Translations under genes and position numbers: made by a program
Assembly (NCBI RefSeq): GCF_900115955.1
Contig: NZ_FOYL01000019.1
Location: 1 to 64,000, forward strand
Reading direction: 5' to 3'
DNA from: Lentzea waywayandensis
Lineage (GTDB): Bacteria; Actinomycetota; Actinomycetes; Mycobacteriales; Pseudonocardiaceae
DNA length: 64,000 nucleotides
The notes under the pieces: model-generated
Told to the model about the DNA's origin: nothing
Databases searched by the model: none
The model's input: only the letters and a program-made list of their open reading frames with translations
Shown here: one piece after another, positions 43-25,424 of the stretch
How positions within the stretch are numbered: position 1 is the stretch's first letter
Layout of the letters: the number at the start of each line of letters is the position of its first letter

Positions 43-933
43 TCACGCTACCTGATCGGCAGGCTGGTATCGGGTGGCTTCGTAGGTGGCGGGGCTGAGG
101 TAGCCGAGGCTGGAATGCCGTCGGCGGGTGTTGTACCAACCTTCGATGTATTCGAAGATTGCCTTGTGTGCCTTGGCTTTCGTGGGCCAGGGCTGCCGGT
201 CGAGCAGCTCGGTCTTGATGGTGGCGAAGAACGATTCGGCGACCGCGTTGTCCCAGCATTGGCCCTTGCGGCCGACGGATAGCCGCACTCCGGCGTCGGT
301 GGCCGCGCGGGCGTACTGACTGGAGGTGTATTGACAGCCCCTGTCGGAGTGGAAGATCACTCCTGGCTCGGGTCGGCGCTGGGTGACGGCGTTGTGCAGG
401 GCCTGCTCGACCAGGTCGGTGCGCAGGTGATCGGCGGTGGCCCAGCCGACGACGCGCCGGGAGCCGAGGTCGATCACGGTCGCGAGGTAGAGCCAGCCTT
501 CCCAGGTGTTGATGTAGGTGATGTCGCCGCACCACCTGCTGTTGATTTCTCTTGCGCTGCAAGAGAAATCCCGCTTGATCAGGTCGGCCGGGGTGGTCGC
601 GGCCGGGTCGGGGATCGTGGTGGTGCGCCAGCGTTTCGGCGCCCGCCCGGCTCGGCCGGCTTCGCGCAGGAGCCGGGCGACGCGCTTGCGGGAGTGCCGA
701 TGCCCCTGGTCGGCGAGCTCGGCGTGGATCCGCGGCGTCCCGTAGGTGCCGTTCGACTCGTCGTGCACCGCGATGATCTTCTCGGTCAGCGCGGCGTCGA
801 CGCGGTCACGGGCGGACGGGCCGTTGGCACGGCGGGTGTAGTAGGCGGCACGGGAGACCTTGAGCAACTCGCAGGCACGCTTGACGTTGCCGCTGCCGGC
901 GTTCTCCGCCTCGATGAACGGATACACGTTCAC
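43..933 (-). CDS. IS3-family transposase OrfB (DDE integrase core, rve domain)
   Basis: Protein contains the YINTWEGWLYLATVIDLGSRRVVGW...HSDRGCQYTS...CWDNAVAESFF motif set of IS3 OrfB/rve integrase core. Confidence 0.85.
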   Translation of the reverse strand: MNVYPFIEAENAGSGNVKRACELLKVSRAAYYTRRANGPSARDRVDAALTEKIIAVHDESNGTYGTPRIHAELADQGHRHSRKRVARLLREAGRAGRAPKRWRTTTIPDPAATTPADLIKRDFSCSAREINSRWCGDITYINTWEGWLYLATVIDLGSRRVVGWATADHLRTDLVEQALHNAVTQRRPEPGVIFHSDRGCQYTSSQYARAATDAGVRLSVGRKGQCWDNAVAESFFATIKTELLDRQPWPTKAKAHKAIFEYIEGWYNTRRRHSSLGYLSPATYEATRYQPADQVA

Positions 934-1247
934 CGGGTCTCCTTCGCGAAGAAAGCCGTGGCCCGCTTGAGGATCTCCACGTCCTCACGCAGCCGCCGGT
1001 TCTCCCGCCGCAACGCGGCCAGCTCGGCCTTCTCATCGCTGCTCAGCCCGCCGTCCTCGCGGGTCCCGGCGTCACGTTCGGCCTGGCGGACCCACTCGCG
1101 CACGGCGGTCTCGGTCAGGTCGAAGTCCTTCGCGACCTGGGCGATCGAGCGGTCACCACGCTGGCACTGCTCGACGATCTCCGCCTTGAACTCCGGGGTG
1201 AACGCACGACGAGGACGCCGGGGCTTGTTCGAGCCCGTGGTCTTCAT
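930..1247 (-). CDS. IS3-family transposase OrfA (HTH)
   Basis: 105-aa protein with HTH and leucine-zipper-like region (FTPEFKAEIVEQCQRGDRSIAQVAKDFDLTETAVREWV...LRRENRRLREDVEILKRATAFFAKE). Overlaps orfB by 4 bp as in programmed -1 frameshift arrangement. Confidence 0.85.
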   Translation of the reverse strand: MKTTGSNKPRRPRRAFTPEFKAEIVEQCQRGDRSIAQVAKDFDLTETAVREWVRQAERDAGTREDGGLSSDEKAELAALRRENRRLREDVEILKRATAFFAKETR

Positions 1248-1311
1248 AAGGACATCCTTCCAGGGGCAGAACCCCTGATCTCAGATGTCCGTCAAAACGG
1301 GTCAGGCCCAG

Positions 1312-1551
1312 GGCAATGCACTTGCGCGACTCGGAGCGCCCGAGGCGATCGATGTTCTCTCCGACGTCCTACGACGGCTTGACTCCAGTTTCGCGCGTGC
1401 AGAGACCACGCTTCGAGTTGACCTCGCTCAAGTGCTTCAGGCCGCGGGGCGAAATGACGAAGCAGCCGCGCACGCAGAACGCGCGCGGCTGCTGGCAGCG
1501 CAGATAGGTTCTGTCCGTCAACGCAGGCGTCTTGACCACCTGATCACCTAA
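1312..1551 (+). pseudogene. C-terminal fragment of a TPR/SARP-like regulator gene interrupted by the IS3 element
   Basis: ORF begins inside the IS terminal repeat and encodes only ~80 aa resembling a C-terminal helical repeat region (LAQVLQAAGRNDEAAAHAERARLLAAQIG). No start codon outside the IS. Confidence 0.4.
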
Positions 1552-2147
1552 ATCATGTTAAGCAGATCTTGAATGGCCTTCTTGGTGGAGTCAATATTAT
1601 CGGCTAGTTGCCGAAGGTCATGCGCGGCCCCGTTCAGATTGCGTGGAATCGGAGCGGCGCTTACTGGCGCCTCTGCGCCACACACGATGACTGCGATGCG
1701 ACTCAGGGTCTCAAGGGTTTCTTCGGTCTTCGATACTTGGTGCGCGGCAACCGTGGTCAGGTGCGTCATTGCACGCAGATAATGCTTTGCTCCGGCGATC
1801 CCTCCTGATGGAGTACCAGGTCCAAATGGAGGAATATTGGCCTCGATCCTCTTCCATTCAGTAACCCAGCGATCCTCTTCTTCCGTTGAAACGCCACATG
1901 CTCGCGCGAAGAATCGCACCTGGTTGGCGCTGGGCTTACCATCACCCTTGCCAAAGTTCTTGTATATCGTAGACCTGCGTAGTTGGAAGTTGGACCTGTT
2001 AGCGATGCTCTGGACTGAGACACCTTTTTCGCTTCGCAAGAGAAGCGTGGCTCTCTTGAAATCCGAGGAATCCCAGGACAGCTCTGCGTCGAGCAGGGCT
2101 TCGGACATCTGTCGTCGACCGTCGTCTTCTTCGCTCAGTCCGATCAT
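1548..2147 (-). CDS. XRE-like HTH domain protein with uncharacterised C-terminal domain (low-GC island cargo)
   Basis: Region 1550-2660 is visibly AT-richer than flanks. Protein has an HTH-like segment (VSVQSIANRSNFQLRRSTIYKNF...ANQVRFFARACGVS). Stop/start overlap ATGA with upstream ORF 2144-2593. Confidence 0.45.
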   Translation of the reverse strand: MIGLSEEDDGRRQMSEALLDAELSWDSSDFKRATLLLRSEKGVSVQSIANRSNFQLRRSTIYKNFGKGDGKPSANQVRFFARACGVSTEEEDRWVTEWKRIEANIPPFGPGTPSGGIAGAKHYLRAMTHLTTVAAHQVSKTEETLETLSRIAVIVCGAEAPVSAAPIPRNLNGAAHDLRQLADNIDSTKKAIQDLLNMI

Positions 2148-2593
2148 TTTGACGCCCGTCCATGTGGGAATAACTGAACGCCAACCTGGATCGCCGTTGT
2201 GGACACCAGGAACGCTGCCGTTCCGACCAGTTCAATCGAGTATCCCTCGCGCAGGAGATACCCTATGAAAAGTAGCGAGCAGACCAACGTTCCGAACCTG
2301 GCGACATATGCGGCGCGTTCGGGAGCGATAGACACATCGGGGCGACGGCTTGGTGATGTCACGAATAACCCCCTTTGAGGGTGGCAGGTAGGTGGCGCAA
2401 CCTCGTCTCGTGTCCGTCGAGGAATCGATACCAGTCTGCATGTCGTGTGCATCAAGTCCAGGCGTTGAGGCGTCCAGACTTCGTCCATGCTCAAAGCAAG
2501 ATCGACCGCACGGTCTCCGGAGACGATCTTCTGTACCCACTCAAGATCGAAATGCTTGCCGGATCGGCCGTTGGGTGCACTACGTCCAATCAC
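2144..2593 (-). CDS. small hypothetical protein with two C-terminal transmembrane helices (island cargo, translationally coupled to HTH protein)
   Basis: Hydrophobic C-terminus (FGTLVCSLLFIGYLL...LVGTAAFLVSTTAIQVGVQLF). 4-bp overlap with downstream HTH gene. Start codon uncertain; low-GC region. Confidence 0.35.
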   Translation of the reverse strand: MIGRSAPNGRSGKHFDLEWVQKIVSGDRAVDLALSMDEVWTPQRLDLMHTTCRLVSIPRRTRDEVAPPTCHPQRGLFVTSPSRRPDVSIAPERAAYVARFGTLVCSLLFIGYLLREGYSIELVGTAAFLVSTTAIQVGVQLFPHGRASK

Positions 2594-2661
2594 AGTTCAG
2601 GCGATGTTTCCACGCGTGTAGACACGTGGTGGACACAAGAGCTTGGGCGCAGCCGGACTTA

Positions 2662-3972
2662 TCAGTCTGACCCGCGTTCCCTCGGAGGGCGGCTTGGCAT
2701 GCGCGAGGCCAACAGGTCCGCGGCCTGCTTATCTGCGCTTGGAACCCATGCCGCGTAGACGCGCAGGGTTGTTGCACCGCCGCCACCGTGGCCGAGGCGA
2801 CCGGCGACGGTTCGGAGGTCCACGCCGGCCGTGAGCAACTCTGTTGCGCTGTAATGCCGCAGTTCGTGCAGATGGGTCTTAAGGCCCAGGCTTGCAGCCA
2901 TGCGCGAATACCGATGTGTGACGCCGTCAGGGTCGGCGTGCCGGTCGTGCCCGGCAGCGTAGGAGAAAAGGAAGGTCTCGCTCGTGACGGGGACGTCCGC
3001 TGCTTCGCAGCGAGCGTGCACACGCTCAATCCATGCGGCAAGTAGGTCGGTTGTGGTCGGATCAACACTGATCCGCCGAATCTGGTGTGACTTGGTTTCC
3101 TTCTCGATCAGTTTTCCGTCGCGAATCACGATGTTGGTGCGTGCTTCGACAACGGCGCGGCAGCCTTCAGTCTCGCAACTGTGAGGATCGGTCTCGGCAT
3201 GGTCGAAGACGATCCGTGGCAAGCGGAGTGCAAGCAGTTCGCCACGACGCAGGCCGGTGACCATCGTCAGCCAAACCAGAGTTCCCCACTGTTCGTCTTC
3301 TTCCCACGCCTTGTTGACGAGGAGTGCAGCCTGCTCCGGAGTCGGAGGATCGGGATTCGGTCGAGGTGCCCTTGGCTTCTTTGCGGCGTCCACAGGGTTG
3401 AAGGCGATCCAGTTCCAGCGGACAGCCGCGTTCAGCGCGCCGGACATCACAGCGTGAATCTGACGGATAGATGAAGGGCCGAGCGGCTTGCAGGCGTGTG
3501 GCTTACACCGGTCATCGCACTTGTGGTCCCTCTCGGTGCGGTGATCGATCAGCTTTACTCGTGGCTTGCAGCGACGGCGGCACCGCTTCACATCGGTGGC
3601 GAAGTCCTCGAAGGCTTTCGGTCCGAGCTGGAGAAGGCGAGTTAGGGTGACTTCGCCGAATGCCGGGCGCAGATACCTGCGGACGTACATCTTGTACCCG
3701 CTGAGGGTTGTCTCTTCGATGTCATGGCCGGATAGCCATTCGTCCAGGACTTCACCGAATTTGGCATTGCTGCGGCTGGTCTTCTTCGTGGCGATCTGCG
3801 CGCGGAACGAGTCGCGCAACTTGATCGCCTCGTCCTCGGTGGGAGCCTGTCCGGACAGGACGATGTCCTTGCCCGTGACCTTGTCCTGCCCGAGGCCGTA
3901 CACGCGCACCTGGTAGGTGTTGCCGCGCTTGCGGATGCCGGTGAGGTCCTTGACCAGCTTCTTCCTGCCCAT
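2662..3972 (-). CDS. int: tyrosine-type site-specific integrase (phage integrase family)
   Basis: C-terminal catalytic motifs LHELRHYSATELLTAGVDLRTVAGRLGH...TLRVYAAW (R-H-R-Y). N-terminal arm-binding-like segment MGRKKLVKDLTGIRKRGNTYQVRVYG. I place the start at the internal ATG (complement at 3970-3972); the long ORF 2662-4101 extends further 5'. Confidence 0.85.
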   Translation of the reverse strand: MGRKKLVKDLTGIRKRGNTYQVRVYGLGQDKVTGKDIVLSGQAPTEDEAIKLRDSFRAQIATKKTSRSNAKFGEVLDEWLSGHDIEETTLSGYKMYVRRYLRPAFGEVTLTRLLQLGPKAFEDFATDVKRCRRRCKPRVKLIDHRTERDHKCDDRCKPHACKPLGPSSIRQIHAVMSGALNAAVRWNWIAFNPVDAAKKPRAPRPNPDPPTPEQAALLVNKAWEEDEQWGTLVWLTMVTGLRRGELLALRLPRIVFDHAETDPHSCETEGCRAVVEARTNIVIRDGKLIEKETKSHQIRRISVDPTTTDLLAAWIERVHARCEAADVPVTSETFLFSYAAGHDRHADPDGVTHRYSRMAASLGLKTHLHELRHYSATELLTAGVDLRTVAGRLGHGGGGATTLRVYAAWVPSADKQAADLLASRMPSRPPRERGSD

Positions 3973-4002
3973 GAACAAGCACGGTACGCCGGATTTACAG
4001 GA

Positions 4003-4024
4003 CAAACGGCAGGACAAGATCCAT
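4003..4024. repeat. direct repeat copy 1 (ACAAACGGCAGGACAAGATCCA), partner at 4238-4259
   Basis: About 20-bp near-identical direct repeat flanking the tRNA-like fragment and lying in the integrase 5' region. Candidate att core or arm-type site. Confidence 0.4.
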
Positions 4025-4117
4025 TCGAACACTAGAACGAGTGAGTCCGGAAAGGGGTGTCTGTGCAGGTGGGAGCAATTTTGATCTATCTGACTATCCA
4101 CTTTGGAGTGGCAAAAG

Positions 4118-4165: not shown

Positions 4166-4237
4166 GCCGGGACAGCCTACCGATCTCCACCTCCGCATGT
4201 CCTCCGGGTTGCCAACCTCACGGTTGACGCACCACCA

Positions 4238-4259
4238 CAACGGCAGGACAAGACCCAAG
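4238..4259. repeat. direct repeat copy 2 (ACAACGGCAGGACAAGACCCA)
   Basis: Matches 4003-4024 with 1-2 mismatches. Confidence 0.4.
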
Positions 4260-4317
4260 AACCCAGGCCAAAGAGGATCAGGCAAGAAAGCAGCCAGAAG
4301 GGGAATCATTCGCAGGC

Positions 4318-5048
4318 AGCTAGGCGAGCCTCTAAGGCGCCTGAACACCGACCACCTCGACCTCTACTGGATGCACAACTGGGATCGGAACACCCCGATC
4401 GAGGAGACCATGCGGACCCTCGACGATCTGGTGGGATCGGGCAAGGTGGGGTACATCGGGTTCTCCAACGTGCCTGGGGTGACGGCTCAGGCGCAGACCA
4501 TGGCCCTGCTCAACGGGTGGACGCCGTTGATCGCGTTGCAGGTCGAGTGCTCGTTGCTGGCGTGGACGGTAGAGGGCGAGATTGCGCCCATGGCCCGGAC
4601 CTGGACATGGCGCTGGTGCCGTGGAGTCCGCTCAAGAACGGGTTCCTGTCGGGCAAGCACCAAAGGAACGTGCAAGTCAGTGACTCCGAGCGGGCCAAGT
4701 TCGTGGGTGGGCCCAGCGAGGAGGAGTTCAAGGTCATCGACGTCGTCGCCGAGATCGCGGAGGAGACCAACGCAACTGCGGCGGCGATGTCGCTGGCCTG
4801 GCTGCCGGGCACAGGCTGGAACGGTTGTGCCGATCATCGGGGCGCCGAAGCTGGAGAGCAACCTCGATGAGGTCGCGTTGACGCGGGAACACATCGCCAG
4901 GCTCAGCCACGTGTCGCGGCCCGAGCTCGACTACCCCGCCGGGCTCCACGGGGAGTTGCGGGCGATGGTGCAGTTCGCCGGTACGACGGTTGATGGCGAG
5001 GCGTCGAGAATCTATCCGCCGCTGCTGCAGAGCGACGTCCGCTACTGA
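4318..5048 (+). pseudogene. aldo/keto reductase pseudogene: 5'-truncated and carrying two frameshifts
   Basis: AKR C-terminal two-thirds is recognisable (RRLNTDHLDLYWMHNWDRNTPIEETMRTLDDLVGSGKVGYIGFSNVPG...) but is split across frames 3, 2 and 3 (ORFs 4197-5048 and 4517-4870). The N-terminal ~100 aa of a normal AKR is absent upstream. Confidence 0.7.
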
Positions 5049-9076: not shown

Positions 9077-9625
9077 ATGACGAGAAGGGGGGCGATGATG
9101 ACCGAGTTCCTGGCTGCCGCGCTGGCGTTTCCGACCGTGGTGTTCAGCTTTCTGTTGCTGATAGTGCTGGCCTACTGGCTCACGGTGGCGTTGGTGGGCC
9201 TGGACTTCGACGCCCCGGTGATGCCGATCTCCATCTCGATGTTCGTCGTGGTCACGTGGTTCGCCGCGCTGGTCGGCACGGTGCTCACACCCGAAGGCTC
9301 GCTCCGGTACGCCATCCTCGCCGGATCGCTGCTCGTGGGTGCGCTCGTCACGAAGATCCTTCTCATCCCGGTCAAGAAATGGACGAAACCGGAGAAACCG
9401 GCGTCCCGCAACGACTTCGTGGGTCGCACCGCGATCGTCAGGACGACCAGGGTCACCGAACGGTACGGGCAGGCCGAGGTGACCGCCGACGACGGCGGTA
9501 CGGCGGTCGTTCAGGTGCGAGCGGCGCAGAGCACCGATCTCAAAGCGGGACAGACCGCGTTGATCTTCGACTACGACGCAGAGGGCGAGTTCTTCTGGGT
9601 CGTGGACATCACCACAGGGGGCTGA
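9077..9625 (+). CDS. NfeD-like membrane protein (OB-fold, flotillin-associated)
   Basis: N-terminal TM helices followed by a C-terminal OB-fold-like beta domain (GRTAIVRTTRVTERYGQAEVTADDGGTAVVQVRAAQ...ALIFDYDAEGEFFWVVD). Stop TGA 9623-9625 is 2 bp before the flotillin ATG. Confidence 0.75.
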   Translation: MTRRGAMMTEFLAAALAFPTVVFSFLLLIVLAYWLTVALVGLDFDAPVMPISISMFVVVTWFAALVGTVLTPEGSLRYAILAGSLLVGALVTKILLIPVKKWTKPEKPASRNDFVGRTAIVRTTRVTERYGQAEVTADDGGTAVVQVRAAQSTDLKAGQTALIFDYDAEGEFFWVVDITTGG

Positions 9626-9627
9626 AC

Positions 9628-11553
9628 ATGGGTGCGATCTCTACGGGGCTGATCGTGCTGATCGCCGTGAGCGCGTTCGTGCTGATCTTGGCACTGATCA
9701 CGCTGAGCAGACTTTTCAAGAAGTGCGAGCAGGGCAAGGCGCTGATCGTCTCGAAGATGCGCAAGGTCGACGTGACCTTCACGGGAACCGTTGTGCTGCC
9801 GGTGCTGCACAGGTGCGAGACGATGGACATCTCGGTGAAGACCATCGAGATCCGCAGGGCCGGCAACGAGGGCCTGATCTGCCGCGACAACATCCGCGCG
9901 GACATCCGCATCACGTTCTTCGTGCGGGTCAACAAGACCGTCGAGGACGTCATCAAGGTCGCGCAGGCGATCGGCACCGAGCGCGCGAGCCACGAGGCCA
10001 CGCTGCAGGAGCTGTTCAACGCCAAGTTCTCCGAGGCGCTCAAGACCGTCGGCAAGCAGCTCGACTTCGTCGATCTGTACACCCACCGCGACGAGTTCCG
10101 CGACCGGATCGTGCAGGTCATCGGCACCGACCTCAACGGCTACAGCCTCGAGGACGCGGCCATCGACTACCTGGAGCAGACGCCGCTCAAGCAGCTCGAC
10201 CCGGCGAACATCCTGGACGCGCAGGGCATCCGCAAGATCACCGAGCTGACCGCGATCGAGCACGTCAAGACGAACGAGTTCACTCGCAACGAGGAGAAGG
10301 AGATCACGCGCCAGAACGTCAGCGCGCGTGAGGCGATCCTGGAACTCGAACGGCGCCAGGCCGACGCGGAGATCAAGCAGAAGCGCGAGATCGAGACCGC
10401 CCGCGCGCAGCAGGAGGCGGAGACGCAGAAGGTGCAGGCCGAGGAACGCCTCAAGGCCAACACCGCCTTCATCCGCACCGAGGAACAGCTCGGCATCCAG
10501 ACCGAGAACAAGGCCCGCGAGATCGCCGTCGCCGAGAAGAACCGCGAGCGCGTGATCGCCGTCGAGACCGAGCGCATCGAGAAGGACCGCATGCTGGAGG
10601 TCATCGCCCGCGAACGCGAGACGTCGCTGCGCATGATCGAGAAGGACAAGGAGCTCGAGCACGAGCGCCGCGCGATCGCCGACCTGGTGCGCGAGCGCGT
10701 CGCCGTCGAGAAGACGGTGGCCGAGCAGGAGGAGAACATCAAGCGCCTGCGTGCGGTCGAGGAGGCCGAGCGCGACCGTCAGCAGATCATCATCCGCGCC
10801 GAGGCCGAGGCGCAGGAGTCGCTGGTCAAGGACATCAAGGCAGCCGAGGCCGCGGAACAGTCCGCGCAGCACAAGGCACGCGAGGAGGTCGTGCTCGCCG
10901 AGGCGCGCAACAAGGCCGCCGAGCTGGACACCCGCTCCAAGATCCGTCTCGCCGAGGGCACGCAGGCCGAGGCCGCGGCGAAGGGCCTCGCGGACGCGCT
11001 GGTCAAGGAACGCGACGCCGCCGCGTCCGAGGCGCTCGGTCGCGCCGAGGCCGTGGTCGACCGCGAGAAGGCCCTGGCCGACGCCGAGGGCATCAAGGAA
11101 CGCCTCAAGGGCGAGGCGGAAGGCCTGTCGCACAAGGCAGAGGCGATGGCCGCGCTCGACACGGCCACTCGCGAGCACGAGGAGTACCGGCTCCGTCTCG
11201 AAGCCGAGAAGGAGATCCGCCTCAAGGGCATCGACGTGCAGCGCGAGATCGCCGAGGCCCAGGCCATGGTGCTCGCGGCCGGCCTGGAGAAGGCCGACAT
11301 CGACATCATCGGTGGCGACACGATGTTCTTCGACAGGATCGCCAGCTCGATCACCGCGGGCAAGCAGGTCGACGGCTTCGTCGGCGGCTCGGACGTGGTG
11401 CAGGCGCTGGGCTCCAAGTGGATGGACGGGTCGGCGAACTTCCCGGAGGACCTGACCAAGATCCTCAGCTCGTTCACCACGGGTGACGCGCAGAACATCG
11501 CCGCGGCGATCGCGCTGACCCAGATGGCCAAGAACAACGGCCAGACCGCATGA
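9628..11553 (+). CDS. flotillin-like SPFH/band-7 domain protein with long C-terminal E/A/R/K coiled coil
   Basis: N-terminal TM helix, SPFH domain (ALIVSKMRKVDVTFTGTVVLP...IRADIRITFFVRVNKTVEDVIKVAQ), extended coiled-coil tail. ORF 8977-11553 is in the same frame, but the upstream 217 codons are GC-rich read-through and overlap nfeD, so the ATG at 9628 is taken as the start. Confidence 0.85.
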   Translation: MGAISTGLIVLIAVSAFVLILALITLSRLFKKCEQGKALIVSKMRKVDVTFTGTVVLPVLHRCETMDISVKTIEIRRAGNEGLICRDNIRADIRITFFVRVNKTVEDVIKVAQAIGTERASHEATLQELFNAKFSEALKTVGKQLDFVDLYTHRDEFRDRIVQVIGTDLNGYSLEDAAIDYLEQTPLKQLDPANILDAQGIRKITELTAIEHVKTNEFTRNEEKEITRQNVSAREAILELERRQADAEIKQKREIETARAQQEAETQKVQAEERLKANTAFIRTEEQLGIQTENKAREIAVAEKNRERVIAVETERIEKDRMLEVIARERETSLRMIEKDKELEHERRAIADLVRERVAVEKTVAEQEENIKRLRAVEEAERDRQQIIIRAEAEAQESLVKDIKAAEAAEQSAQHKAREEVVLAEARNKAAELDTRSKIRLAEGTQAEAAAKGLADALVKERDAAASEALGRAEAVVDREKALADAEGIKERLKGEAEGLSHKAEAMAALDTATREHEEYRLRLEAEKEIRLKGIDVQREIAEAQAMVLAAGLEKADIDIIGGDTMFFDRIASSITAGKQVDGFVGGSDVVQALGSKWMDGSANFPEDLTKILSSFTTGDAQNIAAAIALTQMAKNNGQTA

Positions 11554-14500
11554 CACAACTCGACGCGGGCACTTATGAGGTGCTGCGGGCCAGGCTGGCT
11601 GATCAGGCCACCGAACTCGCCCGCAGCACCGAGGCGCTGAACGACCGGCGCGTCGAGACGTTCGGCAGCACGGCCCTCGAACTCGTCGCCACCGAACGCA
11701 TCCGGACCGAGAACAACTGCGTGCCGCGCGACATCGTCGCGCTCGGCGACGTGATGCTGTTCGGCTACAACGTCTTCATGGGCCTCAAGCCCGAGACGAC
11801 GGTCAACGACGTCTTCGCGGCGCACGGCAGGGACTTCGCCACGGTCGAGGCGGAGTTCCTGCGGGACCCGAGGTTCCGCAACGACTTCGCCGAGCTGTAC
11901 CGGTACTACCGGGAAACGCGGCTGCTCCAGCTGCGCACGGTCGAGTCGCGGCTGCTCGCGGTGTTCCAGACGGGCGCGCGGATCGAGGACATCCGCGTGC
12001 TGCGCTGGGACATCAAGGTCGACGGCACGGTCACGTACGTCGACAACCGCGGCGACCGGGACCACGTCTTCCCGCCCTCGCACGACTTCACGTGGGTCGA
12101 GACGACCCGCGAGCAGCACGTGCTCGGCCGGCACCCACACATCGCGATCGACAACGAGGTCTTCGTCGAGACGGTCGGCGGCACGCTGACGGTCAAGATC
12201 GAGGACAACACCGAGTCCGGTGAGGGCGTCTACGAGGAGCCCGTCGACGAACCGTTGCAGAGCCTCGCGGACGCCGAGATCCACTACGCCCGCGTCGGCC
12301 CGTTGATCCTCCTCAAGATCCTGCCGTACAAGGAAACGGCGTGGCGGCACCTTGTGTTCAACACCCGCACCAAGGTCGTCACCAGGCTCGACGGCATCGG
12401 CCAGGCCTGTCAGCGTCTGCCGGAGGACCAGGGGATCATCTTCCCCGGCGGCTACTACCTGGTCACGGGCGCGGACAAGACGTTCGACGTCGACACGGAC
12501 GAGCTGGAGTTCGAGCGGGTCGTCCGGTCCGCGAACGGCGAGGACGTGCTGTACGTCTTCCACGCCCGCCGCGAGGGCCGCAGCCTGTTGTTGCCCTACA
12601 ACGTGATCCGCAAGGAAGTCGCGACACCCATCACCTGCCACGGCTACTCGCTCTTCGCCGACGGCACGCTGGTCGTCTTCCGCGAGACCGGCTCAGAGGC
12701 CGTGCGCGTGCACCCGATGCAGGTGTGGCGCACGCCGTTCGTCCACGACGAGGTGCTGCCGGACCAGGCGGGCCCGCTCGCCCGCATCGGCAACGCCGAC
12801 CTGGTCCGCGGCATCTCGGACTGCCTGTCCATCACCAGGATGAGCGCCGAGATGACGCCGAGCGCACCGGTGTTCGAGGGCCTGATCGCCCTGTGCACCA
12901 GGGTGATCGACGGCGTGCACTGGCTCGACGAGCTGGGGCTCAAGCAGGACGTCCAGGCCGTGCGTGCCACGGCCGAGCAGGTGCTGGACGAGTTCGAGGC
13001 CGTCCGCACGCTCACCGAGCACGCCGCCCAGCAGCTCCACACCGCCGGCGAGAAGCTCGCCTCACTGGTCAGGCTCGCCAGGTCGGCTGCGCCGAGAAGT
13101 GCCGACGAGTGGGTGCGGCTGCTGGCCGATCTGCGGTCCGCCCAGGGCCGGCTGATCACCCTCAAGGACCTCAAGTACGTCGATCTCGAAGAGATCGACA
13201 GGCGCGAGGCCGAACTGGTCGAGGAACTCGGCGCGTCCGCCCGCAGAGCCGTCGCGTTCCTCAGCGGCGAGGGCGCGTTCTCCCAGTACCACGAGGAAAT
13301 CGACCAGATCGCGGCCGCGGAGCTGAAGATCGCGGCTGAGGCGACGCCGTTGCGTGAACGCCTCGCGCAGCAGCAGACCGGCCTGGAGGTGCTGACCGAG
13401 GTCGTCAGCACGCTCGACGCCGCGGACACGACGACCCGCACGCAGATCCTGGCGAGCATCGGCGAGGTGCTGGCCGCGGTCAACCGGGCACGGGCCACTG
13501 TGGACGGTCGGCGCGCCCAGCTCGCGAACGCCGAGGGCCGCGCCGAGTTCGCCGCGGAGTTCGCGCTGCTCGGCCAGGCCATCACCGGCGCGTTGTCGGT
13601 CGCGGACACCCCGCAGCGCTGCGACGACCAGCTCGGCAGGCTGTTGCTCCAGCTGGAGAACCTGGAGTCGCGGTTCGGCGAGTTCGACGACTTCCTCGCC
13701 CAGGTCGGCGCCAAGCGCACGGACGTCTACGAGGCCTTCTCCGCCCGCAAGCAGACGCTGCTCGACGAACGTGCGAGAAAAGCCGATCGGCTCGTGCAGT
13801 CCGCGGAACGGGTGCTCGGTACGATCCGCCGTCGCGTCGGGAAGCTGACCTCGACCGACGAGATCAACACGTACTTCGCCGGCGACCCGATGGTCGCCAA
13901 GGTCCGCACGGTCGCCGAGCAGCTCAGGGAGCTCGGCGACGTCCGGGCCGACGAGCTCGACGCGAGTCTGCGCGATGCCCGGCAAGAGGGAGGCCGGGCA
14001 CTGCGTGACCGGGCCGATCTGTACGACGGCGCGTCGATCGTGCTCGGTCGTCATCGCTTCCCGGTGACGACCGAGCCGATGAACCTCACTCTCGTGCCGC
14101 GCGACGGCCGTCTCTACTACGCGGTCACCGGAACCGACTACCGCAGCGAGGTCACCGACCCGGAGTTCGGCAGGACCAGGCCGTTCTGGGACCAGCTGCT
14201 GGTCTCCGAGACGCAGGACGTCTACCGGTCCGAGCATCTCGCCGGATGCCTGCTCGCCGAAGGCCGCACCGACGTCACGAACGCCGCGGCGGAACGCTAC
14301 GACGAGGGCTACGAGAAGGGCGTCCACGACCACGACGCCGAGAAGATCCTCGCTGTCCTGCAACGGCTTCACGCCGGTGCCGGTCTGCTCAGATACCCGC
14401 CTTCGACCCGTGCCCAGGCGCAGATCTTCTGGTCCGAACAGCCGGAAGACCGACGAGCGGTGTGGACGCGCAAGGCCGAGTCACTGGCCCGCGCCCGCAC

Positions 14501-15968
14501 AATCTTCGGTGGCACGCACGGAATTCCGGAGCTGACAAAGCAGTTCGGGCTCGAAGCACTCTCCGCCGAGTACCTGTTCGAGGAACTCGCCTGCGAGCCC
14601 AGGGGATTCGTCACCAGCAAGGCCGCCCGCGCGGTGATCGACAGGTTCCGCGCGGTCGTCACCGAGGAACTCCACGACCGCGACCTGATCGAGGCGTGGC
14701 TGCACGCGTTCCTGAAGGACGAGGACTGCCCGGAGTTCCCCGAGGTCGTCGCGATCCTGCTCACCGACCTGCCGCGCTACGACTCCAGCGCGTCGCTGAG
14801 CGAGACCGTCACCGGCCTGCTCGGCACGCACCCCCGTGTGCACGACCAGTCGATGGACCTGCGCCTGGACGAGACCCTGACCAGGCTCAGAGCCTTCAAC
14901 ACCGAACAGGTGCCCGCCTTCCGCGCCTACCAGCGCAAACGTGACGAGTTGCTGACCGAGGAACGCCGCAGGCTCCGGCTCGACGACTACCAGCCCGCGG
15001 TGCTGAACACGTTCGTGCGCAACAGGTTGCTGAACGAGGTCTACCTGCCGTTGATCGGCGACAACCTCTCCAAGCAACTCAACGACGGCACCGGCCTGCT
15101 GATGCTGATCTCCCCGCCCGGCTACGGCAAGACGACGCTGATGGAGTACGTCGCGAACCGCCTGGGCATGGTGTTCGTCAAGGTCAACGGCCCGGCGCTG
15201 GGCACCGGCGTCACCTCGCTCGACCCGGCGGAGGCACCGAACGCCACCGCGCGCCAGGAGGTCGAGCGGATCAACTTCGCGTTCGCCCTGGGCAGCAACG
15301 TTCTGCTGCACCTCGACGACATCCAGCACACCTCACCCGAGCTGCTGCAGAAGTTCATCTCGCTCTGCGACGCCCAACGACGGATCGACGGCGTCTGGGA
15401 CGGCGAGGCACGCACGTTCGACCTGCGGGGCAAGCGCTTCGCGGTGTCGATGGCAGGTAACCCGTACACCGAGACCGGCCGCGCTTTCCGGGTCCCCGAC
15501 ATGCTCGCGAACCGCGCGGACGTGTGGAACCTCGGTGACGTGCTGTCCGGCCGCGACGCGCTGTTCGCGTTGAGCTATCTGGAGAACGCGTCCGGCTCGA
15601 ACCCGACCCTGGGCGGGGTCGACGTGGAACCGTTGGTGCGCTTGGCGAACGGCGAGACCGTCCGGCACGACCACGAGACCGTCGAGCTCGAACGGATGCT
15701 GTCGGTGGTCCGGAAGCTGCAACGGATCCAGCAGGTCGTGCTCAAGGTCAACCAGGCCTACATCGCGTCCGCGGCGGACCCGTCCGAGCAGCCGTTCCTG
15801 TTGCAGGGCAGCTACCGCAACATGATCAGGATGGCGGCGAGGATCGTGCCGGCGATGAACGACGACGAGGTCGAGGCGTTGATCGACGACCACTACCTCG
15901 GCGAGGCCCAGCTGCTCGGCTCATTGGCGGAAGCGAACCTCGCGAAGCTCAGGGAGCTCAAGGCTTAG
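11550..15968 (+). CDS. 1472-aa multidomain protein with C-terminal AAA+ ATPase domain, translationally coupled to flotillin
   Basis: ATGA overlap with the flotillin stop (11550-11553). N-terminal ~450-aa unknown domain, central ~400-aa predicted coiled-coil region, C-terminal Walker A (LISPPGYGKTTLMEY) and Walker B (VLLHLDDIQH) followed by a GNPYTETGRAFRVPDMLANR segment. Confidence 0.8.
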   Translation: MTQLDAGTYEVLRARLADQATELARSTEALNDRRVETFGSTALELVATERIRTENNCVPRDIVALGDVMLFGYNVFMGLKPETTVNDVFAAHGRDFATVEAEFLRDPRFRNDFAELYRYYRETRLLQLRTVESRLLAVFQTGARIEDIRVLRWDIKVDGTVTYVDNRGDRDHVFPPSHDFTWVETTREQHVLGRHPHIAIDNEVFVETVGGTLTVKIEDNTESGEGVYEEPVDEPLQSLADAEIHYARVGPLILLKILPYKETAWRHLVFNTRTKVVTRLDGIGQACQRLPEDQGIIFPGGYYLVTGADKTFDVDTDELEFERVVRSANGEDVLYVFHARREGRSLLLPYNVIRKEVATPITCHGYSLFADGTLVVFRETGSEAVRVHPMQVWRTPFVHDEVLPDQAGPLARIGNADLVRGISDCLSITRMSAEMTPSAPVFEGLIALCTRVIDGVHWLDELGLKQDVQAVRATAEQVLDEFEAVRTLTEHAAQQLHTAGEKLASLVRLARSAAPRSADEWVRLLADLRSAQGRLITLKDLKYVDLEEIDRREAELVEELGASARRAVAFLSGEGAFSQYHEEIDQIAAAELKIAAEATPLRERLAQQQTGLEVLTEVVSTLDAADTTTRTQILASIGEVLAAVNRARATVDGRRAQLANAEGRAEFAAEFALLGQAITGALSVADTPQRCDDQLGRLLLQLENLESRFGEFDDFLAQVGAKRTDVYEAFSARKQTLLDERARKADRLVQSAERVLGTIRRRVGKLTSTDEINTYFAGDPMVAKVRTVAEQLRELGDVRADELDASLRDARQEGGRALRDRADLYDGASIVLGRHRFPVTTEPMNLTLVPRDGRLYYAVTGTDYRSEVTDPEFGRTRPFWDQLLVSETQDVYRSEHLAGCLLAEGRTDVTNAAAERYDEGYEKGVHDHDAEKILAVLQRLHAGAGLLRYPPSTRAQAQIFWSEQPEDRRAVWTRKAESLARARTIFGGTHGIPELTKQFGLEALSAEYLFEELACEPRGFVTSKAARAVIDRFRAVVTEELHDRDLIEAWLHAFLKDEDCPEFPEVVAILLTDLPRYDSSASLSETVTGLLGTHPRVHDQSMDLRLDETLTRLRAFNTEQVPAFRAYQRKRDELLTEERRRLRLDDYQPAVLNTFVRNRLLNEVYLPLIGDNLSKQLNDGTGLLMLISPPGYGKTTLMEYVANRLGMVFVKVNGPALGTGVTSLDPAEAPNATARQEVERINFAFALGSNVLLHLDDIQHTSPELLQKFISLCDAQRRIDGVWDGEARTFDLRGKRFAVSMAGNPYTETGRAFRVPDMLANRADVWNLGDVLSGRDALFALSYLENASGSNPTLGGVDVEPLVRLANGETVRHDHETVELERMLSVVRKLQRIQQVVLKVNQAYIASAADPSEQPFLLQGSYRNMIRMAARIVPAMNDDEVEALIDDHYLGEAQLLGSLAEANLAKLRELKA

Positions 15969-16440
15969 CTTTGTCGCACTTCAGGTCGATCGGCTTGCCG
16001 TCCGGGCCGCGCAGGTCGACCGGCTGAAGGTGGTACTTCTTCAGGAGGTCGCAGAACTCGTCGCTCATCGGCCACTCCAGGCAGCGCTTCAACTCTTCGC
16101 CGAAGAGCGTCGAGTCACAGCGCAGCAGGTCGAACAGGCCGGCACCGGGGGTTCCCGGAGCCGGCCGCGGCGGAGGTGGCGGCCGATGATCGGGCCGGTG
16201 CCGGGGCGGCGGGTGGGCGCCAGGGGGTGGCGGCGGAGGTGGCGGCGGCCGTTCGGCACCGATGGCGGACATGGTGGTCGTGGCGGTCGCGGTGATGACC
16301 TCGGGCGGCGGGGGCGGCGGCGCGACCAGGCGGATGTCGACGGGCTTGTCCGGGGGTGCCGCGAACAGGGCCGCGACGAGGGCAGCGCCCATCACCGCGA
16401 CCGCGGCTGTGAAGTAGCCGCGGCGTCTGACACCAGTCAT
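15958..16440 (-). CDS. proline-rich membrane-anchored hypothetical protein with C-terminal 4-Cys domain
   Basis: N-terminal TM helix (YFTAAVAVMGAALVAALFAA), PPPPPP runs, C-terminal CDS..C..C..C domain. 3' end overlaps the ATPase gene by 11 bp convergently. Confidence 0.5.
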   Translation of the reverse strand: MTGVRRRGYFTAAVAVMGAALVAALFAAPPDKPVDIRLVAPPPPPPEVITATATTTMSAIGAERPPPPPPPPPGAHPPPRHRPDHRPPPPPRPAPGTPGAGLFDLLRCDSTLFGEELKRCLEWPMSDEFCDLLKKYHLQPVDLRGPDGKPIDLKCDKAKP

Positions 16441-25125: not shown

Positions 25126-25198
25126 GTCCCCATCATCTAGCGGCCTAGGATCCCGCCCTTTCAAGGCGGTCGCGCGGGTTCGAATCCCGTTGGGGGCA
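25126..25198 (+). tRNA. tRNA-Glu (anticodon TTC)
   Basis: GTCCCCATCATCTAGCGGCCTAGGATCCCGCCCTTTCAAGGCGG...GGTTCGAATCCCGTTGGGGGCA; anticodon loop CTTTCAA; GTTCGAATCC T-loop. Confidence 0.9.
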
Positions 25199-25236
25199 CG
25201 CAGTAAAGTACGGTACGGTAAGACCAGCAAGAGCAA

Positions 25237-25310
25237 GGCCCAGTGGCGCAGTTGGTTAGCGCGTCGCCCTGTCACGGCGAAGGTCGCGGGTTCGAGTCCC
25301 GTCTGGGTCG
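25237..25310 (+). tRNA. tRNA-Asp (anticodon GTC)
   Basis: GGCCCAGTGGCGCAGTTGGTTAGCGCGTCGCCCTGTCACGGCGAAGGTCGCGGGTTCGAGTCCCGTCTGGGTCG. Confidence 0.9.
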
Positions 25311-25341
25311 CTTTTCCTGTGGTTGAGATATCACAGTTCAT

Positions 25342-25415
25342 GGCCAGGTAGCTCAGTTGGTACGAGCGACCGCCTGAAAAGCGGTAGGTCGGCGGTTCGA
25401 CCCCGCCCCTGGCCA
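25342..25415 (+). tRNA. tRNA-Phe (anticodon GAA)
   Basis: GGCCAGGTAGCTCAGTTGGTACGAGCGACCGCCTGAAAAGCGGTAGGTCGGCGGTTCGACCCCGCCCCTGGCCA. Confidence 0.9.
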
Positions 25416-25424
25416 TCCTTCTTC

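Follow-up and report, generated by a model that had tools for sequence, protein, structure and literature searches.

A conserved YqiK-type flotillin-ATPase gene pair in Lentzea waywayandensis and a possible role for the ATPase in remodelling flotillin assemblies

Introduction

Why should the start codon of a giant AAA+ ATPase gene overlap the stop codon of a bacterial flotillin gene? The question is raised by a three-gene locus of the actinomycete Lentzea waywayandensis, situated within the first 64,000 nucleotides of contig NZ_FOYL01000019.1 (hereafter the window, i.e. the whole stretch of DNA that was analyzed). An earlier, sequence-only reading of the window had described the locus as an NfeD-like/flotillin pair extended by a 1472-residue AAA+ protein, with tight junctions between the genes, and had suggested a membrane-microdomain scaffold coupled to a remodelling or defence machine of undescribed function. 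The gene content and both junctions (TGA-ac-ATG between the first two genes and an ATGA overlap between the last two) proved correct, and we asked what the ATPase might do behind a flotillin.

According to published accounts, SPFH proteins build large cages that face the cytoplasm or the periplasm, sometimes together with NfeD partners and sometimes enclosing FtsH-type AAA+ machines; single and multiple SPFH deletions are described as often being without a phenotype, for instance in a study of Pseudomonas aeruginosa. A 2009 survey of SPFH2/NfeD operons (Hinderhofer et al. 2009, PMC2636767) mentions no ATPase partner.

Results

A flotillin gene directly precedes the ATPase gene in every informative locus

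More than 6,800 homologues of the ATPase were found in a database clustered at 90%, and a scan of one genome per species returned at least 590 loci, the best 80 of which were analyzed. With eight plasmid or secondary-replicon records and three contigs carrying distant homologues, these yielded a set of 91 loci, the added records being those of Pseudomonas (plasmid pQBR103), Hymenobacter, Deinococcus (two), Streptomyces, Proteus, Vibrio, Halomonas, Saccharobesus, Ignatzschineria and a TARA Oceanospirillaceae contig. A flotillin gene was located directly 5' of the ATPase gene, on the same strand, in all of the 86 loci with enough upstream DNA. The linked loci span Actinomycetota, Pseudomonadota, Bacteroidota, Deinococcota, Myxococcota, Acidobacteriota and a Clostridia metagenome-assembled genome, and thus at least six phyla. 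Chance adjacency of the two genes was rejected on this count, and the possibility allowed for by the sequence-only reading, namely that the ATPase gene is unlinked to flotillin in most relatives, was not borne out.

A YqiJ-like gene precedes the flotillin gene in at least 75 loci, so that the triad which the earlier reading had proposed to trace through Actinomycetota is widely conserved; the YqiJ-like gene was undetectable in about 10 Streptomyces loci. PspA adjoins the triad in two loci only, those of Hymenobacter and of the TARA Oceanospirillaceae contig. Since the flotillin-ATPase pair persists where the YqiJ-like gene is missing, and PspA is adjacent in two loci, flotillin is the constant partner of the ATPase. 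The sequence identities of flotillin and ATPase track each other across loci (Spearman 0.77). A 4-nt stop/start overlap like that of Lentzea was found in about 20 other actinomycete loci outside Streptomyces, the corresponding gaps in Streptomyces and in other phyla measuring 40-260 nt.

The Lentzea proteins differ from their homologues in their extremities. The Lentzea ATPase is devoid of the C-terminal tail of 52-276 residues present in all 73 other loci compared, and of a 'GDxKRTDQ' loop that immediately precedes Walker A in the protein sequence; the Lentzea flotillin, similarly, is without the C-terminal tail of 23-54 residues that most flotillins carry. The correlated loss of both tails was considered and not used as evidence of a functional link, as it represents a single Lentzea event. 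Four other loci (L018, L021, L023 and L091) likewise have a short or shorter flotillin tail, yet retain the tail of the ATPase.

The locus is an abbreviated form of a published operon

Ravi et al. (2024; mSystems 9:e00847-23; preprint 2020; PMC11237479) described an operon of CesT/Tir-PspA and three further genes, noted that these three genes occur alone or with CesT/Tir-PspA and that a PLD/HKD gene is present in some Proteobacteria, and proposed a role for the operon in sub-membrane assembly and dynamics with PspA. Their supplement lists the ATPase as Betapropeller + Coiled-coil + AAA-ATPase. That this ATPase belongs to the DUF3686 family, as does the Lentzea protein (see below), follows from two loci: the Hymenobacter plasmid, where the gene order is Tir chaperone, PspA, DUF1449, SPFH and 'DNA repair ATPase', and the TARA contig, where it is DUF2170, PspA, small gene, flotillin and DUF3686 ATPase.

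The Lentzea locus agrees with the operon of Ravi et al. in its three components, in the order of the genes and in how the domains of the ATPase are arranged: the window encodes a YqiK-type protein with one N-terminal transmembrane helix, a Band-7 domain and a long helical region, a probable YqiJ/YuaF-type protein with three to four hydrophobic segments, and an ATPase with a predicted propeller, a helical region and an AAA+ module. It differs in the length of the ATPase (1472 residues, compared to ~1600-1800), in the missing C-terminal tail and in the ATGA overlap, none of which is essential. No CesT/Tir-PspA dyad was seen 5' of the triad in the window, and a tblastn search with the Hymenobacter PspA and Tir proteins, the sensitivity of which is low, gave no window match. 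The locus is thus the 'abbreviated' form of a membrane module that is widespread among bacteria. The sequence-only reading was right to call the function undescribed insofar as experiments are concerned, our literature search having found no experimental study of the ATPase; the gene association and the domain architecture, on the other hand, were already known.

The extended operons bear on a different interpretation, in which the ATPase is a Vps4-like remodeller of polymers of PspA/IM30 (the bacterial ESCRT-III), flotillin and YqiJ serve as a mere platform, and the PspA of Lentzea is encoded elsewhere in the genome. CesT/Tir (or DUF2170/YjfI) and PspA genes do stand directly 5' of the triad in Hymenobacter, in the TARA Oceanospirillaceae contig and, according to the supplement of Ravi et al., in Dokdonia. 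In our set, however, PspA is an occasional neighbor where flotillin is an invariable one; a Pfam search of the ATPase revealed neither an MIT-like domain nor any other domain known to bind ESCRT-III, and the ten genes nearest to the operon in the window include no member of the PspA family. We consider this interpretation unlikely.

The ATPase combines a predicted N-terminal propeller with a single AAA+ module

Pfam matched the ATPase at three places, to DUF3686 (E 1.7e-208), to DUF7902 (residues 576-656; E 7.5e-23) and to AAA (residues 1185-1229; 25.7 bits, against a cut-off of 21.2). The ~450 N-terminal residues which the sequence-only reading had taken for an unknown domain thus belong to a named family. 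DUF3686 matches 752 cluster representatives (50% clustering); among the 150 best listed, the domain is almost always N-terminal and the full-length proteins measure ~1600-1900 residues. No transmembrane-like or hydrophobic segment was seen in the ATPase by hydropathy.

The domain and structure searches which the sequence-only reading had called for were informative with regard to this N-terminal domain. When AlphaFold2 was given residues 1-477 along with 45 homologues from Actinomycetota and Gammaproteobacteria, the resulting model reached a predicted local distance difference test score (pLDDT) of 90 and a predicted template-modelling score of 0.88. This model consists of a helix (residues 6-38), a beta-rich, propeller-like core of ~350 residues made of four-stranded units (44-394) and further helices (409-476). 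When the model was compared to the PDB with Foldseek, the matches listed were almost all beta-propellers (WD40, Kelch, paraoxonase, prolyl oligopeptidase and clathrin terminal domain), with probabilities of ~1, E values of 1e-6 to 1e-4 and low TM-scores of 0.2-0.33. Because the matches are propellers with low TM-scores, the DUF3686 domain is, as modelled, a divergent beta-propeller with no close solved relative.

The middle region (residues ~450-800) is rich in A, E, L, R, K and Q (54-64%) and poor in P and G. The helix-favouring character of the ~400-residue stretch that had been read as a coiled coil was thereby upheld, along with a weak match to SMC_prok_B over residues 465-767 (E 0.037); the coiled coil itself was not.

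The C-terminal AAA+ module carries the Walker A (PPGYGKTT) and Walker B (LLHLDD) motifs that had been picked out from the sequence, both of which are real and invariant across 46 aligned homologues. Equally invariant are N1304, R1322 and R1423, the candidate sensor-1, arginine finger and sensor-2 residues, respectively. Similarity to proteins in the PDB is confined to the segment from just before Walker A to beta2 of Rix7, NVL, Cdc48/p97 and RuvB, and the alignments end at the position of pore-loop-1.

These matches also speak to the product name under which the protein is filed at NCBI, 'DNA repair ATPase', and to the Pfam description of DUF3686 as 'ATPase involved in DNA repair', which would make the protein a true repair enzyme placed beside membrane genes by chance. 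Compatible with such a function are the SMC-like match of the helical region and RuvB matches of the P-loop, all of them weak, and a LexA-family regulator near the triad on one Hymenobacter plasmid. Yet the RuvB (17-18 bits) and SMC matches are of the generic P-loop and helical kind, Pfam detected no DNA-binding or nuclease domain in the ATPase, and the only invariant neighbor is a membrane flotillin, no repair-gene context having been seen. Nor could the name be traced to an experiment: in the literature searched, we found no paper mentioning DUF3686 or PF12458, or 'DNA repair ATPase' together with flotillin. A role in DNA repair is thus very improbable.

The two upstream genes encode a YqiJ/YqiK-type pair

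The product of the second gene is 100% identical to a Lentzea waywayandensis protein annotated YqiK/Band7. It has no Pfam match and only a weak NCBIfam match to FloT; Pfam Band_7 is above threshold in an orthologue of 78% identity (P0169) and in the Pseudomonas orthologue. The small protein encoded by the first gene, and eight of its orthologues, likewise showed only sub-threshold Pfam matches to NfeD and YqiJ_N, those to NfeD coming from two Deinococcus orthologues (E 0.002-0.008). The NfeD-like and flotillin assignments of the sequence-only reading, for which the window proteins thus remain below Pfam thresholds, nonetheless hold by way of the Escherichia coli proteins. Against YqiK of the E. 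coli K-12 genome, the flotillin gave a BLASTP match of E 1e-35 with 27% identity over 464 residues that include the transmembrane helix and the SPFH domain, and the flotillin family profile gave an hhalign probability of 99.9%. The profile of the first gene matched YqiJ with 90.9% (E 1e-6), which represents moderate support, and the YuaF structure (2k14) weakly (E 0.53), albeit over the correct region, so that its C-terminal part is a candidate for the OB-fold domain of NfeD partners; its UniRef name is 'DUF1449 family'. On the basis of the homology to YqiK and YqiJ and of this UniRef name, the two genes are, by sequence, a YqiJ/YqiK pair of the NfeD-like/SPFH2 type surveyed by Hinderhofer et al. 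2009. The E. coli yqiJ-yqiK and Bacillus subtilis yuaF-floT operons similarly code for a homologous flotillin and small membrane protein, with the small gene first. Unlike in Lentzea, yqiK of E. coli K-12 is followed not by an ATPase gene but by sibD/ibsD.

The small protein displays three to four hydrophobic segments in its N-terminal half by hydropathy and a beta-rich C-terminus of ~60 residues. In the flotillin, residues ~1-29 form an N-terminal transmembrane helix and residues ~30-200 a divergent SPFH/Band-7 domain, after which come a long helical region (~200-555) and a short domain at the C-terminus. Its one N-terminal hydrophobic helix is followed by basic residues (SRLFKKCEQGK), and by the positive-inside rule the SPFH and helical parts would lie in the cytoplasm; the soluble part of the small protein is likewise predicted to be cytoplasmic. 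An AlphaFold2 model of the flotillin built with 29 close homologues was poor (pLDDT 55, with values below 50 in the SPFH region), long helices being predicted from 192 to 555. Sequence profile searches of the PDB with the flotillin family and with its SPFH region gave no match even at E 10.

Organization and surroundings of the operon

The three open reading frames (ORFs) are tightly packed on the + strand [Table 1] in a region of high guanine-plus-cytosine (GC) content (~0.66-0.69) whose source match is Lentzea waywayandensis, all three gene products being exact matches to proteins of this species. The ORF of the first gene had been drawn from position 9077. The ORF stands, and its start is probably the ATG at 9095 rather than the position 18 nt further 5' that gives the longest frame, as the former is the annotated start in L. 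waywayandensis (SFR29370.1) and is directly preceded by the Shine-Dalgarno-like sequence AGAAGGGGGG. An AGGGGG motif is located inside the first gene, 8 nt 5' of the flotillin ATG; no Shine-Dalgarno-like sequence was seen 5' of the ATPase start at the ATGA overlap. Within Lentzea, each of the three genes evolves under purifying selection, with ratios of nonsynonymous to synonymous substitution rates (dN/dS) of 0.15-0.24 overall, 0.15-0.22 for the small gene and 0.17-0.24 for the ATPase gene.

Table 1. Positions in the window of the three genes, their junctions and the mapped parts of the ATPase
Feature	Position	Strand	Size, residues or basis
yqiJ-like small membrane protein gene	9095..9625	+	176 aa; translation and exact match to SFR29370.1
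Shine-Dalgarno-like AGAAGGGGGG before ATG 9095	9082..9091	+	direct sequence reading
Junction of genes 1 and 2	9623..9630	+	TGA (9623-9625), 2-nt spacer 'ac', ATG 9628
yqiK-type flotillin gene (SPFH2 family)	9628..11553	+	641 aa; YqiK homology
ATGA overlap, flotillin stop/ATPase start	11550..11553	+	direct sequence reading
ATPase gene, beta-propeller (predicted)/helical/AAA+	11550..15968	+	1472 aa; NCBI name 'DNA repair ATPase'
DUF3686 domain	11613..12920	+	residues 22-457; Pfam
Helix-favouring middle region	12900..13949	+	residues ~450-800; DUF7902 at nt 13275-13517
Single AAA+ module	14997..15869	+	residues ~1150-1440
Walker A GYGKT, K1194	15114..15137	+	SPPGYGKTT, residues 1188-1196
Walker B LLHLDD, D1256-D1257	15303..15320	+	residues 1252-1257

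The 5' neighbor of the operon is a divergent gene for a luciferase-like monooxygenase, before which lie genes for a CobW-type GTPase and two of the beta-lactamase family. On the 3' side, a convergent ORF of 160 residues (15958-16440, - strand; GC at third codon positions 0.84; no Pfam match) has an 11-nt overlap with the ATPase stop, and the further genes include one of PNPOx-like type. Since these flanks are unrelated genes of housekeeping type, the unit consists of exactly three genes. Scans for promoters and terminators were uninformative (no promoter, and one terminator-like site on the wrong strand), and neither Rfam nor tRNA scans gave a match near the operon. A cluster of tRNA-Glu(ttc), tRNA-Asp(gtc) and tRNA-Phe(gaa) genes is located further away in the window, at 25126-25418 on the + strand. 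Toward the 5' end, a transposase pair of the IS3 type (43-1247) and an ORF for a tyrosine-recombinase/integrase (2662-4101), all on the - strand, occupy a segment (43-4101) of lower GC content (0.605-0.637, compared to ~0.68 elsewhere) that resembles the remnant of a mobile element, ~5 kb 5' of the operon. The adjacent aldo/keto-reductase ORF (4197-5048) covers only positions 78-180 of the 291 of its Pfam profile and is probably truncated or disrupted.

The neighborhoods of the homologous loci vary. A divergent gene for a PucR-type regulator (GGDEF_2 + HTH_30) stands 5' of the operon in L038, in L058 and in ~27-30 Streptomyces loci (at ~3.5-5.2 kb in locus coordinates), and could in Streptomyces represent a local regulator or mere synteny. 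In Vibrio campbellii (L086, 12834-14612), a PLD/HKD-family gene begins 1 nt past the ATPase stop, and TelA (toxic anion resistance) comes after it. A coiled-coil-like ORF of 300 residues overlaps the ATPase stop in Ignatzschineria (L091), and NhaA is a neighbor in some loci. On plasmid pQBR103 of Pseudomonas fluorescens SBW25 (L001), genes of the DUF2491, DUF350, DUF1190 and glutathionylspermidine-synthase families (56-3110) lie directly 5' of the triad; this four-gene set is the polyamine-linked, PspA-associated set of Ravi et al., so that two of their operon types are here juxtaposed.

The surroundings are also where the suggestion of a defence machine may be judged, in the form of an anti-phage or conflict system whose flotillin/ATPase complex would sense perturbation of the envelope by a phage and trigger a membrane-directed or abortive response. 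Copies of the triad are carried by megaplasmids and secondary replicons such as pQBR103, the PLD/HKD and TelA genes adjoin it in Vibrio, the integrase and insertion element lie ~5 kb 5' of it in the window, and PADLOC (PADLOC-DB v2) returned weak matches of the ATPase to IetA (E 2.7e-4 and 4.9e-3). These matches, however, cover the generic AAA region only, and the two other proteins gave none; no homologue was found in 50,697 phage records, the direct neighbors in the window are housekeeping genes, the protein identities between genera of actinomycetes look like those of a mostly vertical inheritance, and selection is purifying, unlike the turnover typical of defence islands. The proposed defence function thus found no support, and we regard it as improbable.

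Discussion

What, then, might the ATPase do behind a flotillin? Our preferred interpretation, to which we would give a little less than an even chance, is that it acts as an ATP-driven remodeller or regulator of a cytoplasmic flotillin assembly in envelope stress. The three genes would be co-transcribed and, in Lentzea, translationally coupled. The flotillin, anchored by its one N-terminal transmembrane helix, would have its SPFH domain, along with the long helical region, on the cytoplasmic side, and the ATPase would dock, via its propeller or its helical region, on the cytoplasmic assembly of flotillin and YqiJ. ATP binding and hydrolysis would then assemble, disassemble or remodel the scaffold or the clients held by it, and this remodelling may serve the maintenance of the membrane and envelope under stress, in some lineages together with PspA.

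Pairings of this type have precedents. In HflK/C-FtsH and in prohibitin-m-AAA, an SPFH scaffold is functionally paired with a membrane AAA+ ATPase, as may be the case in Lentzea. FtsH, however, is anchored in the membrane and endowed with an M41 protease domain, whereas the Lentzea ATPase appears to be soluble, has a propeller-like domain in place of a protease domain, and is paired with its flotillin by gene linkage alone. Among PDB sequences, those that match the AAA+ module best belong to the group of Vps4-ESCRT-III, Cdc48/p97, Rix7 and NVL, where the analogy is that of an AAA+ protein recycling a membrane-bound polymer. Here too, the Lentzea protein departs from the known systems: the similarity is limited to ~35-70 residues around Walker A, an MIT domain is absent, the single AAA module sits at the C-terminal end of a 1472-residue protein, and both Walker B and the pore loop are of a different kind.

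Several observations weigh against the preferred interpretation. A classical AAA unfoldase is expected to combine a GxxGxGK[ST] Walker A with an hhhhDE Walker B and to carry an aromatic-hydrophobic-Gly pore loop 1 after beta2. Only the Walker A was found: Walker B ends in DD rather than DE in all 46 homologues, which puts an aspartate at the position of the catalytic glutamate, and at the position of pore-loop-1 there is no aromatic residue, 'KVNGPAL' being followed in every homologue by G-T/H-x-V-T-S-L-D-P. The AAA+ module is thus atypical for a substrate-threading unfoldase. Both departures, in Walker B and in the pore loop, speak for a mode of action that is slow, switch-like or non-threading, so that a switch-like or oligomerization role is as plausible as mechanical remodelling. 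The SPFH domain of the flotillin, for its part, produced neither a usable model nor a PDB sequence match. Furthermore, yqiJK of E. coli works without such an ATPase, which would make the enzyme an accessory, not something that flotillins need in general. Finally, the 80 genome loci analyzed are those closest to the query, and distant unlinked copies could exist.

A narrower version of the proposed role is that the propeller-AAA+ protein is a dedicated, nucleotide-driven assembly/disassembly factor of YqiK-type flotillin cages, with flotillin, not PspA, as its obligate partner. The choice of partner follows from flotillin-ATPase being the only invariant pair; the proposal as a whole is doubtful. 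If it were true, the ATPase would be to SPFH proteins what Vps4 is to ESCRT-III or NSF to SNAREs, and its unusual Walker B (DD) and pore loop (non-aromatic) would imply a non-threading mechanism.

The association of the three genes was known from a published comparative-genomic study, and annotations of the Lentzea genes existed, which limits the novelty of the present findings. What is added is the count by which flotillin-ATPase stands out as the invariant pair, a structure model in support of the propeller, the recognition of the DD Walker B and of the missing pore-loop aromatic, and the realization that the name 'DNA repair ATPase' is unsupported. The function of bacterial flotillins, and how their assemblies are built and turned over, are unsettled matters. 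An ATPase encoded directly behind one subfamily of flotillins may provide an enzymatic handle on them, through point mutants, ATP dependence and substrate trapping.

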